12,547 bases of DNA, from IMG/VR virus record IMGVR_UViG_2675903434_000005. One strand, given 5' to 3'. The notes beneath the pieces are model-generated. The model ran no database searches. It saw only the letters and a program-made list of their open reading frames with translations, and was not told the DNA's origin. Origin of the DNA: a virus (taxonomy: Duplodnaviria; Heunggongvirae; Uroviricota; Caudoviricetes). Below are positions 4,751 through 12,469 of the stretch, piece by piece. Position 1 is the stretch's first letter, and every line of letters begins with the position of its first letter. Made by a program: the position numbers and the translations under genes.

Positions 4751-4808
4751 AAAAAGGGCGGCAGAGCAGTCACGGAGTAAAACTGATACCGCCAAACGTC
4801 ACCAGAAA
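4751..4808 (-). ncRNA. dicF: DicF small regulatory RNA (antisense regulator of ftsZ and other mRNAs)
   Basis: Minus-strand sequence TTTCTGGTGACGTTTGGCGGTATCAGTTTTACTCCGTGACTGCTCTGCCGCCCTTTTT matches the E. coli DicF sequence as I recall it, including the 3' U-tract terminator. It lies between the ydfC-like gene and dicB, as in Qin. Confidence 0.7.
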
Positions 4809-5974: not shown

Positions 5975-6613
5975 TTAAATATCTTGTTGAATTTTAAAGC
6001 ATACGCCCAATATGCAAGATAGATCATCCAGCATAATTGAAGGGTAGCGAGGATTCGTGGGGACTAAAAGAATATCCGGCCCTTCTATCTCCAGTTTACG
6101 AATGACAGGTGTTGTGGTCCCTTTGGGTAAGGCAAGGACAATATTTCCTGGTTGTACGGTTCGATCGGGATCAACAAAAACTGTTGAACCATTTGGGATG
6201 GAAACTCCCCCACCAGATGTTGACATACTGTCACTCTCTAGAACAACTGCAAAGGTATTGACCGGGATTTCTCCGACAAGCTGCACACAAGAGGTTATTG
6301 AGGAATTTTTCATATAATCACTCCAGCTTGCTGCCTGCTGAAGTGATAGTAGCGGAACCGTTTTTATCGGCGGTAAAGATAGATCAAGCGAATCACCTGT
6401 ATTTAACTCTCCTCCATTAAGAAGCCAATTTTCGTTTACTTTCAATATTTTTGCCAGTGAACTTATGTAACGCGAGGACGGCGCTCCTCCACCGTTCATC
6501 CATTGACTTACGGAGCCTTTTGATGCGCCAGTGCCATTGACAAGGTCTTTGCCTTTCAGGTTTAGCGCATGCATACGTTGGGTTATGCGTTCAGATATAG
6601 TTTGCTTGCTCAT
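5975..6613 (-). CDS. CI-like prophage repressor (N-terminal HTH, C-terminal S24 LexA-type autopeptidase domain)
   Basis: ORF track 5975..6613 (212 aa). C-terminal motifs align with lambda CI: LESDSM vs VEGNSM (Ser nucleophile), VFVDPDRTVQPGNIVLA vs ILVDPEQAVEPGDFCIA, IRKL vs FKKL (Lys), LVPTNPRYPSI vs LQPLNPQYPMI. N-terminus has an HTH (GASKGSVSQWMNG). Divergent from the Cro-like gene. Confidence 0.9.
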   Translation of the reverse strand: MSKQTISERITQRMHALNLKGKDLVNGTGASKGSVSQWMNGGGAPSSRYISSLAKILKVNENWLLNGGELNTGDSLDLSLPPIKTVPLLSLQQAASWSDYMKNSSITSCVQLVGEIPVNTFAVVLESDSMSTSGGGVSIPNGSTVFVDPDRTVQPGNIVLALPKGTTTPVIRKLEIEGPDILLVPTNPRYPSIMLDDLSCILGVCFKIQQDI

Positions 6614-6704
6614 GTTTTGATTTTAAAACACAGATGGTTTTGTTTCTTGACTTTCTTTGGTTTTGATTATTAAACTTTTGACGTTCAGTTTTATGGAGCG
6701 ACTC
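6613..6704. promoter_or_regulatory. Divergent switch region (OR-like): operator repeats, rightward promoter, leaderless leftward promoter
   Basis: Palindrome TGTTTT-N6-AAAACA at 6613-6630. GTTTTG starts at 6614, 6637 and 6660, exactly 23 bp apart. Rightward TTGACT (6647-6652), 18-bp spacer, TAAACT (6671-6676). Leftward TAAAAT -10 (6620-6625) ends 6 nt before the repressor ATG, implying a leaderless transcript as for lambda cI from PRM. Confidence 0.45.
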
Positions 6705-6935
6705 ATGAAAAAATCAGAAGTATTAGGCTATTTTGGCGGAGTTGTTAAAACAGCCGCAGCTCTAGGAACGTCAAAAACCACAGTCAGCATGTGGGGGGAA
6801 GAGGTTCCGTGGAAATGGGCGTTGCTAATTCAGGCAGTCACTGCCGGGGCGCTCAAATATGAGTTACACATACCGACGGTTGTCATTCCCGGTTCTGATC
6901 ATAATCCGCCTTCTAACCAAGGGGGGGATTCATGA
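6705..6935 (+). CDS. Cro-like HTH regulator of the YdaS family (77 aa)
   Basis: Part of ORF 6657..6935. Start chosen at ATG 6705 (MKKSEVLGYFGG...), with GGAG 6 nt upstream. HTH region VKTAAALGTSKTTVSMW. First rightward gene, divergent from the repressor. Confidence 0.75.
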   Translation: MKKSEVLGYFGGVVKTAAALGTSKTTVSMWGEEVPWKWALLIQAVTAGALKYELHIPTVVIPGSDHNPPSNQGGDS

Positions 6936-7357
6936 AAATCAAGCATGAACACATCCGCATGGCGATGAATGCCTGGGCGCATCCGGACGGCGAAAAAGTA
7001 CCGGCTGCGAAAATTACCAAAGCGTATTTCGAGCTGGGAATGACGTTCCCGGAACTGTATGACGACAGCCATCCGGAAGCCCTGGCTCGCAATACCCAGA
7101 AAATTTTCCGCTGGGTAGAGAAAGACACCCCTGATGCAGTTGAAAAAATTCAGGCGTTGTTACCAGCGATCGAAAAGGCAATGCCACCTTTGCTGGTGGC
7201 CAGAATGCGCAGCCACAGTTCAGCTTATTTTCGGGAGCTGGTGGAGACGCGGGAGCGACTGGTGAGAGACGCTGATGATTTTGTCGCAGTGGCAATCGCC
7301 GGTTTCAATCAGATGAACCGTGGTGGCCCGGCAGGAAATGCTGTGGCAGTACATTGA
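6932..7357 (+). CDS. ydaT: YdaT-like protein (reported functional analogue of lambda CII in cryptic prophages)
   Basis: ORF track 6932..7357 (141 aa). ATGA start/stop overlap with the upstream Cro-like gene. N-terminus MKIKHEHIRMAMN and the ~140-aa length match my recollection of Rac/CP-933P YdaT. Confidence 0.65.
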   Translation: MKIKHEHIRMAMNAWAHPDGEKVPAAKITKAYFELGMTFPELYDDSHPEALARNTQKIFRWVEKDTPDAVEKIQALLPAIEKAMPPLLVARMRSHSSAYFRELVETRERLVRDADDFVAVAIAGFNQMNRGGPAGNAVAVH

Positions 7358-7428: not shown

Positions 7429-8499
7429 ATGGCTAACGCCTGGCTCAGATTATGGCATGACATGCCAAATGACCCTAAGTGGCGAACAATTGCCAGGGTG
7501 TCAGGGCAGCCAATTGCAACAGTGATGGCAGTGTATATCCACCTCCTGGTGAGCGCGTCACGAAATGTCACGCGAGGTCACATTGATGTCACGACAGAAG
7601 ATTTGGCAAGTGCGCTCGACGTGACAGAAGAGGTAATTGATTCAATTTTGCAGACGATGCAGGGGCGGGTACTTGATGGTGATTTAATCACTGGATGGGA
7701 AAAACGCCAGGTGCTGAAAGAGGACAACGGCAATATTTCGCAAACCGCAAAATCTCCGGCAGAGCGCAAGAGGGCGCAGCGAGAGAGGGAAAGAAAGCGG
7801 GAACAAAATGGCGATTGTCACGGCGCGTCACGAAATGTCACGCACATGTCACGACGAGTCACGACAGATAAAGATACAGATAAAGATACAGATCAAGAAG
7901 ATCAAAACACTATGGTCCATGGCGTAAAAAACGCCACGAACCAGGCAGGGGATGTTCAGACCGTCAATCCTGGTCAGCCAGCAGGCACGACACCGGAAGC
8001 CGATTCAGCGTATGCGCTGAAAGCCGATTCGGGCGCTGTGCAGCAGGTGATGACCCCAAGGCCGGAGCAATCACACCAACTGCAGCAGCCTGAAGCCGAT
8101 TCCGCCATTCAGCGGGAAGCCGATCGGGTAGTCCCGGAAAACACCGGGCTGTCTGTGGGACGAGTGGATTATCCGGATGTGTTCGAACAGGTCTGGCGGG
8201 AGTACCCGTTGCGTGCCGGAGCAAACCCGAAGAAATCCGCTTTCAGTGCCTGGAAGGCCAGATTACGCGAGGGGGTGCCACCAGAGGCCATGCTGGATGG
8301 CGTGAGGCGTTACGCAAGATACTTGGCGGCTACCGGGAAAACGGGAACGGAATTTGTTCAGCGAGCGACGACGTTTTTTGGACCGGACCGGAATTTTGAG
8401 AACCCCTGGTTGCTCCCGGTAAGCGGCACGAACAACCAGCGTTGTGTGAATCATATTTCTGAACCGGATACCGAAATTCCACCGGGCTTCAGGGGGTAA
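7429..8499 (+). CDS. Replication initiator (lambda O-like, replisome-organizer N-terminal domain), origin embedded in the gene
   Basis: ORF track 7423..8499. ATG 7429 is preferred, with AAGAGG about 5 nt upstream. N-terminus ANAWLRLWHDMPNDPKWRTIA resembles phage replisome-organizer N-terminal domains. The gene contains two iteron clusters and an AT-rich tandem repeat, as ori-lambda lies within O. Confidence 0.75.
   Translation: MANAWLRLWHDMPNDPKWRTIARVSGQPIATVMAVYIHLLVSASRNVTRGHIDVTTEDLASALDVTEEVIDSILQTMQGRVLDGDLITGWEKRQVLKEDNGNISQTAKSPAERKRAQRERERKREQNGDCHGASRNVTHMSRRVTTDKDTDKDTDQEDQNTMVHGVKNATNQAGDVQTVNPGQPAGTTPEADSAYALKADSGAVQQVMTPRPEQSHQLQQPEADSAIQREADRVVPENTGLSVGRVDYPDVFEQVWREYPLRAGANPKKSAFSAWKARLREGVPPEAMLDGVRRYARYLAATGKTGTEFVQRATTFFGPDRNFENPWLLPVSGTNNQRCVNHISEPDTEIPPGFRG
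7553..7600. repeat. Iteron cluster 1: four GTCAC(G) copies at 10-11 bp phasing (candidate ori)
   Basis: GTCACG at 7557, 7567 and 7588, plus GTCAC at 7577; helical-turn spacing, inside the replication initiator gene. Confidence 0.5.
7814..7866. repeat. Iteron cluster 2: five GTCACG copies at 10-11 bp phasing (candidate ori)
   Basis: GTCACG at 7817, 7827, 7837, 7848 and 7858. The 21-mer GCGCGTCACGAAATGTCACGC is shared with cluster 1. Confidence 0.5.
7867..7910. repeat. AT-rich tandem repeat next to the iterons (possible DNA-unwinding element with two GATC sites)
   Basis: Perfect 2 x 12-bp tandem GATAAAGATACA (7867-7890), then GATCAAGAAGATCAAAAC; encodes DKDTDKDTDQEDQ within the initiator. Confidence 0.45.
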
Positions 8500-8539: not shown

Positions 8540-8962
8540 GTGGCAAAAGTTTTTACACAAGAAGAGCGAGAAAAAATTAAAGGGCAGGTTGTTGAACTCG
8601 TACGCCAGAGTGGGCGTGAGACGTTACGGCAACTGGAAGTCAAGACAGGTGCGACAAGATATCTGATGAGCGTTCTCGCAAGAGAGCTGGTTGCCAGCGG
8701 CGATGTATACAACTCCGGCTACGGGTTATTCCCCTCTGAACAGGCGCGTAAGGACTGGCAAAACGCCCGCAAAAAACTCTCGAGGGCAAAGGTGAAGAAA
8801 CCTGCTGTGGTTGATCCGGACCTTATCTGGTCATCACCTGACGGAGAAATACGTCGCTACGACAGTCGCCTAAACATAATCTGTCGCGAGTGCCGGAAGA
8901 GTGAAGCTATGCAGCGTGTACTGGCTTTCTATCAGGGTAATTTTCAGGAGGCGGTACTGTGA
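8540..8962 (+). CDS. Hypothetical phage protein (140 aa), GTG start
   Basis: ORF track 8540..8962. GTG at 8540 is preceded by GGAGGG; protein-like composition, C-terminal CRECRK; the stop abuts the next gene region. Confidence 0.6.
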   Translation: MAKVFTQEEREKIKGQVVELVRQSGRETLRQLEVKTGATRYLMSVLARELVASGDVYNSGYGLFPSEQARKDWQNARKKLSRAKVKKPAVVDPDLIWSSPDGEIRRYDSRLNIICRECRKSEAMQRVLAFYQGNFQEAVL

Positions 8963-10567: not shown

Positions 10568-10686
10568 GACTGCGGGTGCTTGAGGCTATCTGTCTCAGGC
10601 ATGAACACCAAAAGGCAGATAGAGAAAAGCCCCAGTTAACATTACGCGTCCTGCAAGACGCTTAACATTAATCTGAGGCCATATCT

Positions 10687-10746
10687 ATGCGACACATAGA
10701 GATTAGCCTCTTACGGACCGAAAGGTCAAGGAGAAGCAGGCTATGA
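10687..10746 (+). CDS. Short leader ORF translationally coupled to hok (mok-like, 19 codons)
   Basis: ATG 10687 with GAGG upstream; its TGA stop (10744-10746) overlaps the hok ATG (10743-10745) as ATGA. Confidence 0.35.
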   Translation: MRHIEISLLRTERSRRSRL

Positions 10747-12459: not shown

Positions 12460-12469
12460 NNNNNNNNNN
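12460..12469. other. Run of 10 ambiguous bases (assembly gap or mask)
   Basis: Literal n x 10 in the sequence. Confidence 0.99.

Follow-up and report, generated by a model that had tools for sequence, protein, structure and literature searches.

We propose that positions 7553-7910 of IMG/VR record IMGVR_UViG_2675903434_000005 are the replication origin of a lambdoid prophage and that this origin lies inside the gene of the prophage's own initiator (7429-8499, + strand), a proposal that we consider well founded and very probably correct. The 12.5-kb stretch that was analyzed is referred to herein as the window and all coordinates are 1-based on it. The element comprises two arrays of the hexamer GTCACG, both written into the coding sequence, and an AT-rich tract that adjoins the second of them. 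Comparison with relatives shows that strong purifying selection acts on the DNA of the arrays and the tract as such, and that the selected sites are tied to the N-terminal winged-helix domain of the initiator. The same comparison supports the reading of the region as an origin given in the preliminary description, and it is from this comparison that we infer an origin function.

Hexamer arrays and the AT-rich tract

GTCACG occurs on the + strand at 7557, 7567, 7588, 7817, 7827, 7837, 7848, and 7858 and on the – strand at 7620, so that nine of the 13 copies in the window fall in about 310 bp, and the probability of at least nine copies in 310 bp by chance is ~3e-15 (Poisson, window background rate). 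In the 46-kb genome of Escherichia phage Tritos the sole GTCACG cluster is likewise that in the initiator gene, with two copies at most in any other 320-bp stretch. The preliminary description had placed nine hexamers in two clusters about 260 bp apart with a phasing of 10-11 bp, and this stands, except that one copy is inverted and unphased and that there is also a tenth, degenerate site. Specifically, array 1 (7557-7593, + strand) consists of four direct sites, GTCACG at 7557, 7567, and 7588 and the degenerate GTCACA at 7578 that fills the gap in the array, with a spacing of 10/11/10 bp. It encodes residues 43-55 (ASRNVTRGHIDVT), which in the structural model form the loop between helices 29-45 and 56-63, ahead of the helix-turn-helix. 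The inverted hexamer (7620-7625, – strand; CGTGAC on the + strand) spans codons D64-V65-T66, 32 bp past array 1 and outside the 10-11 bp phasing. Array 2 (7817-7863, + strand), the proposed main initiator-binding array of the origin, has five direct copies of GTCACG with a spacing of 10/10/11/10 bp and encodes residues 130-145. The 21-mer GCGCGTCACGAAATGTCACGC that the two arrays were said to have in common is present in exactly two copies, at 7553 and 7823 and thus 270 bp apart. The repeats are in frame, with the translations SRNVTRGHIDVTT and SRNVTHMSRRVTT, and the hexamers occupy three codon registers, g/TCA/CGa (S-R), GTC/ACG (V-T), and gGT/CAC (G-H), where a slash marks a codon boundary, which means that a repeated peptide cannot explain them.

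Directly after array 2 is an AT-rich, A-rich tract (7864-7907, + strand; GC 0.35) that contains 2.9 copies of ACAGATAAAGAT and is the proposed DNA-unwinding element. The perfect 2 x 12-bp tandem repeat noted previously was recovered in this tract, with perfect copies at 7864 and 7876, and a third, imperfect copy comes next (TRF, 2.9 copies, 7864-7898). Positions 7867-7907 are the least stable 40-mer of the gene, with a ΔG of -44.7 compared to a window mean of -55.8 (s.d. 4.1; 99.6th percentile). There is no AT-rich neighbor to array 1. Two GATC (Dam) sites had also been assigned to the origin, and they are indeed present 9 bp apart within the tract (at 7891 and 7900, spanning 7891-7903), but they are not a conserved part of it, as the pair is absent in the Pseudomonas relative and only one site is found in the Aeromonas relative. 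Since the pair is not kept, it is probably incidental or specific to the enterobacterial host and not a defining part of the origin. A DnaA-trio-like reading of the (GATAAA)n tract was considered by eye and dropped, because the tract does not fit the published consensus.

Upstream of array 2 is a polypurine tract (7758-7817, + strand) that is 80% A+G, the highest of any 60-mer in the window, and that codes for the basic helix (AERKRAQRERERKRE). With this tract on one side of array 2 and the A-rich tract on the other, the origin region has a strong strand asymmetry. The AT-rich tract is followed by an imperfect palindrome (7913-7943), terminator-like on the – strand, with a DNA fold of -8.7 kcal/mol (z = -3.05). 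The palindrome is also present in Shigella phage 75/02 Stx, which has only the C-terminal module of the initiator gene in common with the window, and for this reason we take it to mark the junction between modules. An Rfam search gave no RNA element in the region of the arrays and the tract, and the count of predicted internal promoters was at chance level.

Selection on the DNA and switching of the hexamer

Relatives were obtained by tblastn with the N-terminal 157 residues, together with about 40 genome loci chosen one per species. The tblastn relatives with ~70% amino acid identity are from Aeromonas phage pAEv1818 and Pseudomonas phages. The preliminary description had called for the iterons to be compared with those of related prophages, and both arrays and the AT-rich tract prove to be kept in ~27 other species. 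In these Gamma- and Betaproteobacteria, GTCAC(G) is found at gene offsets 129/139/149/160 (+) and 193 (–), and array 2 has three to six copies at ~387-430, nearly all of them spaced by 10 or 11 bp. The offsets 129/139/149/160 hold in most of the GTCAC-type species, as does the inverted copy at 193. The length of the array-1 loop varies among relatives by way of insertions that carry extra iterons, such as the two additional array-1 iterons in E. albertii, and one Pseudomonas locus has a long loop insertion.

That the constraint acts on the DNA is evident from synonymous positions. The window was aligned with 23 relatives by codon and without gaps (24 sequences), and in this alignment the mean entropy at the third positions of conserved codons of the four-fold type is 1.71 bits outside the hexamers but falls to 0.14 bits within them (25 versus 7 codons; Mann-Whitney p = 3.6e-5). 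With the repeats in frame and their synonymous third positions frozen, the earlier view that DNA and protein constraints are superimposed here is borne out. The codons for V47 (GTC), T48 (ACG), G50 (GGT), and V54 (GTC) are fixed in all 24 sequences, while the neighboring R49 uses four codons, and V65 in the inverted copy is encoded by GTG in 20 of the 20 sequences that have valine there. The tract is conserved in the same manner. An AGATAA-type tract lies directly after the last array-2 iteron in all 27 tabulated loci, with the form NNAGATAAAGATA... in most, and it stays AT-rich (GC 0.18-0.49, and ≤0.40 in 26 of the 27) although the loci reach 70% GC, with a GC3 of 0.00-0.29 compared to 0.40-0.67 in the rest of the gene. 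In four loci the motif of the tract is read in another frame, for example as LDKRR or PQIREE in place of DKDKD.

More distant relatives keep two arrays, at ~nt 130-190 and ~nt 360-450 of the gene, and use another hexamer, and the two arrays of any one genome always match. GCAACG is found in Ralstonia phage Hennie, Cupriavidus, and Burkholderia (L004, L044, and L045), CGAACG in five loci (including L003, L033, L035, and L037), and GTAACG in Pantoea, Enterobacter, Marinobacter, and Sphingomonas (L026, L029, L036, and L038), so that with GTCACG at least four natural specificities are seen. The closest contrast is that between Erwinia (GTCACG) and Enterobacter/Pantoea (GTAACG), whose aligned DNA columns are on average 83% identical and whose iterons differ by C to A in both arrays, with the inverted copies in Enterobacter changed from G to T. 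The GTC to GTA switch is silent, the V-T codons being synonymous. Such a concerted change is as would be expected for the binding sites of one specific reader. In the same pair, the putative recognition helix begins with a change from His to Asn, and the iteron that encodes this change has itself undergone the C to A switch. We considered the array-1 loop as a recognition element and rejected it as unsupported as a general rule, as the loop precedes the helix-turn-helix in the model and GTC to GTA is silent there. Inspection by eye for specificity-determining residues outside the iteron-encoded segments gave no consistent column, a comparison that phylogeny confounds. In one Erwinia locus (L030) GTCACG units also overlap at a spacing of 5 bp (GTCACGTCACGTCACG).

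These data bear directly on the simplest alternative, namely that the repeats have no function as DNA and are the by-product of a repeated peptide (SRNVT...VTT) or of chance. The repeats are in frame, as this alternative would have it, and the peptide ASRNVTRGH.DVT is nearly invariant in the family. Nevertheless, we regard it as effectively refuted by the three codon registers, by synonymous freezing that is found only inside the hexamers, by protein-silent changes of GTC to GTA in concert across the iterons of both arrays, by an AT-rich motif that outlasts shifts of the reading frame, and by the chance probability given above.

The only constant companion of the arrays is the N-terminal domain of the initiator, and this argues for the initiator as the reader. 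It is conceivable that the arrays are instead read by another protein, such as a host factor or the products of the neighboring YdaT/CII-like and LygF/Ren-like genes, with a role in regulation, exclusion, or packaging. Indeed, the window and the Aeromonas and Pseudomonas relatives all have a YdaT-like gene upstream, and LygF has a weak PHROG match of a DNA-binding type. However, a YdaT-like open reading frame (ORF) is absent from the flanks of 30 of the 38 array-bearing loci, according to the hidden Markov model search that was used because tblastn was too insensitive for this co-occurrence; LygF is found in one of 46 loci, and neither LygF nor Cro co-occurs with the arrays. Moreover, different clades of the N-domain go with different hexamers, in hosts that range from Enterobacterales to Burkholderiales, which argues against a conserved host factor, and the arrays are always within the region that encodes the N-domain and linker. 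We therefore consider a reader other than the initiator to be very improbable.

In contrast to the N-terminal domain, the C-terminal domain is exchanged among relatives, with a DnaT domain in ten of the 37 aligned members, and the downstream helicase genes differ. A fusion in Shigella phage 75/02 Stx (L128, 1894-2982) joins a C-domain of the window type (~82% DNA identity) to an unrelated N-domain without hexamer arrays, and a DnaC-like gene comes next. This indicates that modules are exchanged at the linker and that the same C-domain works with or without a phage-encoded loader. In two other loci (L040 and L043, from Serratia and Pantoea) the same N-domain is joined, at gene nt ~300-480, to a YVYYVA...GISRNPWAR... 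part that by eye resembles a T5orf172/GIY-YIG-like domain. There are no iteron arrays in these loci, and they may represent a non-replicative reuse of the DNA-binding domain.

A proposed mechanism and its relation to known origins

The initiator gene comes after the CI, Cro, and CII-like genes, and its ATG start codon (7429) is preceded by a GAGG ribosome-binding site. Its identity, which the preliminary description had proposed, is confirmed by the match of the 356-residue protein to PHROG 3729, "replication initiation protein" (E = 1.7e-256, residues 1-356 against profile positions 1-356 of 356). No family in Pfam or NCBIfam passes its cut-off with the whole protein or with either half. The domain plan is a winged-helix domain at residues ~1-95, a basic helix at 110-126, a disordered linker at 128-160, and a C-terminal domain. 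An AlphaFold model built on an alignment of 37 sequences has a block with a pLDDT of 83-93 for residues 11-90, falling to 74 at 41-50, and contains helices 29-45, 56-63, and 67-77, a β-hairpin at ~78-88, and the basic helix. The pLDDT is below 50 at residues 128-160, and with this part disordered, array 2 and the AT-rich tract lie in an interdomain linker. A Foldseek search of the PDB gave only winged-helix regulators, each of them a weak match (E = 0.3-2), and these are consistent with a winged helix but are not proof of one.

Residues 122-356 are called "DnaD-like helicase loader" by PHROG profiles, and the C-terminal 24 residues (GTNNQRCVNHISEPDTEIPPGFRG; 8425-8496, + strand) resemble the C-terminal tail of the host primosomal protein DnaT. 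This tail matches NCBIfam NF002770 at positions 156-179 of 179 (E = 0.0015) and the PDB entries 6aep, 2ru8, and 9zbt (E = 0.02-0.07), with the motif SEPDxxIPPGFRG identical, such that the terminus of the initiator, ...VNHISEPDTEIPPGFRG, is nearly the same as the tail INSVSEPDNHIPPGFRG of DnaT in those entries. The IPPGFRG terminus is also seen in several relatives that have otherwise different C-terminal domains. A P-type or DnaC-like loader gene was not found directly downstream of the initiator gene, and the window has no gene for a helicase or a loader. Hence, the phage may plug into the helicase-loading or restart machinery of the host in the way that DnaT does.

We now put forward the following mechanism. 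The N-terminal winged-helix domains would bind the direct 6-bp iterons head-to-tail along one face of the DNA, with each helical turn taking one domain, and the five sites of array 2 would be the main binding platform. The resulting nucleoprotein complex would destabilize the adjoining A-rich tract (7864-7907), and the C-terminal domain with its DnaT-like tail would then recruit host DnaB, probably with the host loader DnaC, as neither a loader nor a helicase gene is present. Array 1, with four direct sites and one inverted site, is 260 bp upstream in what would be a permissive surface loop of the protein and most likely joins the complex by looping or wrapping, or it may instead be a control element that acts by autoregulatory road-blocking or origin pairing. 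Transcription from the early rightward promoter would cross the origin, as in λ. OmpR/PhoB-type winged-helix proteins bind direct repeats spaced by 10-11 bp in tandem head-to-tail, and they are an analogy for the proposed binding mode, in which a winged-helix domain would likewise read short direct repeats that recur with each helical turn. It should be noted that those proteins are transcription factors and that the analogy is to the mode of binding, with no homology claimed.

A control function could also be proposed for both arrays, in that binding of the initiator would serve mainly autoregulation, titration, or handcuffing, while replication starts elsewhere or in another way. In accordance with this, the occurrence of one site in two separate arrays is reminiscent of plasmid control iterons, both arrays are inside the transcribed initiator gene, and array 1 has no AT-rich neighbor. 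On the other hand, array 2 is always fused to an AT-rich tract of low stability that is selected as DNA even in GC-rich hosts, which is the signature of an unwinding element and not of an operator, and the Tritos genome has no second GTCACG cluster that could be the real origin. For array 1 alone, a control function is compatible with the origin that we propose. Overall, we think it improbable that control is the main function of the two arrays.

How does the proposed origin compare with those already described? The mid-gene origin of λ and the Stx phages, ori-λ, lies inside gene O (PMC3349717, PMC7466680), and the preliminary description had likened the present region to it. The likeness holds for the layout and the offset within the gene, but not for the protein as a homolog of λ O. 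In both cases the origin is in the middle of the initiator gene and is transcribed from the early rightward promoter, and the iteron array is in the linker that joins the DNA-binding domain to the C-terminal one and is followed on the promoter-distal side by an A-rich or AT-rich tract (in λ, the annotated iterons at gene nt 349-433 and then ACACAAAAGACACTATTACAAAAGAAAAAAG; here, iterons at 389-435). The number of iterons is variable in both (four versus six between λ and the Stx phages; three to six here), and the N-domain with the origin forms one exchangeable module and the C-terminal domain another. In contrast, the λ iterons are 18 bp and ~20-24 bp apart whereas those here have a 6-bp core and are direct repeats 10-11 bp apart, a second array is here within the coding sequence of the DNA-binding domain itself, and the next gene is DUF977/Ren-like and not a P-type loader gene. 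Searches for homology to λ O (PF04492, Phage_rep_O) gave no Pfam match, an hhalign probability of 0.1%, and a BLASTP E of 0.1 that involved only the low-complexity linker.

In SPP1, oriL similarly lies in gene 38, which encodes the replisome organizer G38P, and the rep gene of TP901-1 has internal repeats (PMC6316719). The origin within the initiator gene is the point of likeness to SPP1. Its second origin, oriR, is ~13 kb away, whereas here 260 bp separate the two arrays within one gene, and no distant second cluster analogous to oriR is found in the Tritos genome. SPP1 also differs in that it encodes its own loader and helicase. Homology to G38P (hhalign 0.1%) or to TP901-1 Rep (1.4%) was not detected. 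The matches to PF09681 and TIGR01714 are below the curated cut-offs (15.2 versus 23.3 bits and 15.4 versus 49.8), with none of the 37 members at E ≤ 0.01, but the weak alignment spans the whole model (5-120 to 1-115 of 121), and remote kinship is therefore possible. With the iteron plasmids (RepA/π/TrfA) the region has in common direct-repeat arrays, a winged-helix initiator, an adjoining AT-rich region, and a separate second cluster of the same site that could act in control. Plasmid iterons are ~17-22 bp and usually intergenic (PMC2647930), in contrast to the 6-bp core and the sites written into coding sequence that are found here, and the initiator has no Pfam match to a Rep_3-type domain.

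Several points weigh against the proposed origin. Among initiators whose in-gene origin has been mapped (λ O, G38P, and TP901-1 Rep), none is detectably homologous to the present one, and in the searchable literature we found no binding or replication experiments on its family; the literature on oriJ of Rac concerns the K-12 Rac prophage and contains nothing on the 7553-7910 region. A 6-bp core is short for an iteron, and for that reason the true binding site may include the bases that flank it. Array 1 may either join the origin complex or act in control. The structural model is confident for residues 11-90 only, and the fold matches are individually non-significant. Lastly, in three AT-rich loci from metagenome-assembled genomes of Ventosimonas and Entomomonas (L032, L034, and L039) array 1 is not visible and array 2 is reduced to degenerate remnants (AAACGAACGC...TGAAC), with long (GATAAA)n tracts kept, and these loci may be decayed prophages or may use a weaker or different site.

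More speculatively, the region might represent a phage origin of a class of its own. The codons for the DNA-binding domain would here spell the very sites that this domain reads, as would those for the linker, such that a matched pair of origin and initiator specificities would lie on one short piece of DNA and could switch in concert. The two arrays would cooperate by looping, and the one protein would recruit the host helicase through a DnaT-like tail, with no loader encoded by the phage. We offer this only tentatively and think it less likely than not.

Prophage setting and significance

From its gene content and profile searches, the window is from a lambdoid, Rac/Qin-like prophage of E. 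coli. It contains an integrase gene (2-1297, – strand), a RecE-like ORF, the DicF antisense RNA (4756-4807, – strand; Rfam, 76.7 bits), an S24 CI-type repressor gene (5975-6613, – strand), a P22-Cro-like gene (6657-6935), and a YdaT/CII-like gene (6932-7357). After the initiator gene there are the DUF977/Ren-like gene (LygF/Ren-like, 8540-8962) and then an ORF for a zinc-ribbon protein, and the sok antitoxin RNA of a hok/sok module is at 10574-10745 (+ strand; Rfam, 106.7 bits). Ten N at 12460-12469 are an assembly gap or masked sequence. The DNA is 97-99% identical to that of Escherichia phages Tritos, Evi, and 204576 and of several vB_Eco phages. Tritos (98.5% identical) was deposited as a complete 46-kb phage genome, and the only replication gene annotated in it is this initiator, with no loader or helicase annotated.

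The N-domain with its repeats is present in 2080 of 5426 (~38%) complete E. coli genomes, with up to four copies per genome, and the module is found in prophages from Enterobacterales to Burkholderiales. The gene is often labeled "hypothetical protein" in RefSeq, PGAP names some of the E. coli copies "phage replisome organizer," and there is no Pfam model for the N-domain. Many of the database copies are "partial" on very short contigs (P0002, P0008, P0009, and P0018), and in one protein cluster of 1121 members the longest contig is 683 bp; it seems that the module often breaks draft assemblies.

Phage origins inside initiator genes are textbook knowledge, and in principle the finding is therefore an ordinary one. 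A published description of the origin of this initiator family was not found in the searchable literature, and the analysis gives a precise origin annotation for a very common type of prophage. The finding is also well supported and the element very widespread, and dual coding and natural switching of iteron specificity are seen in it with unusual clarity. The DNA constraints in three codon registers explain the near-invariance of the peptide ASRNVTRGH.DVT, and the relatives provide a natural series of iteron specificities in which the co-evolution of initiator and origin can be studied. In practical terms, the initiator with its origin is a candidate one-gene replicon of ~1.1 kb for vector design, and recoding or codon-optimizing the initiator gene would destroy its origin. 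Should the distinct class of phage origin suggested above prove true, the family would provide a set of minimal replicons that are orthogonal by nature and would show cleanly how dual coding can drive the sequence of a protein.

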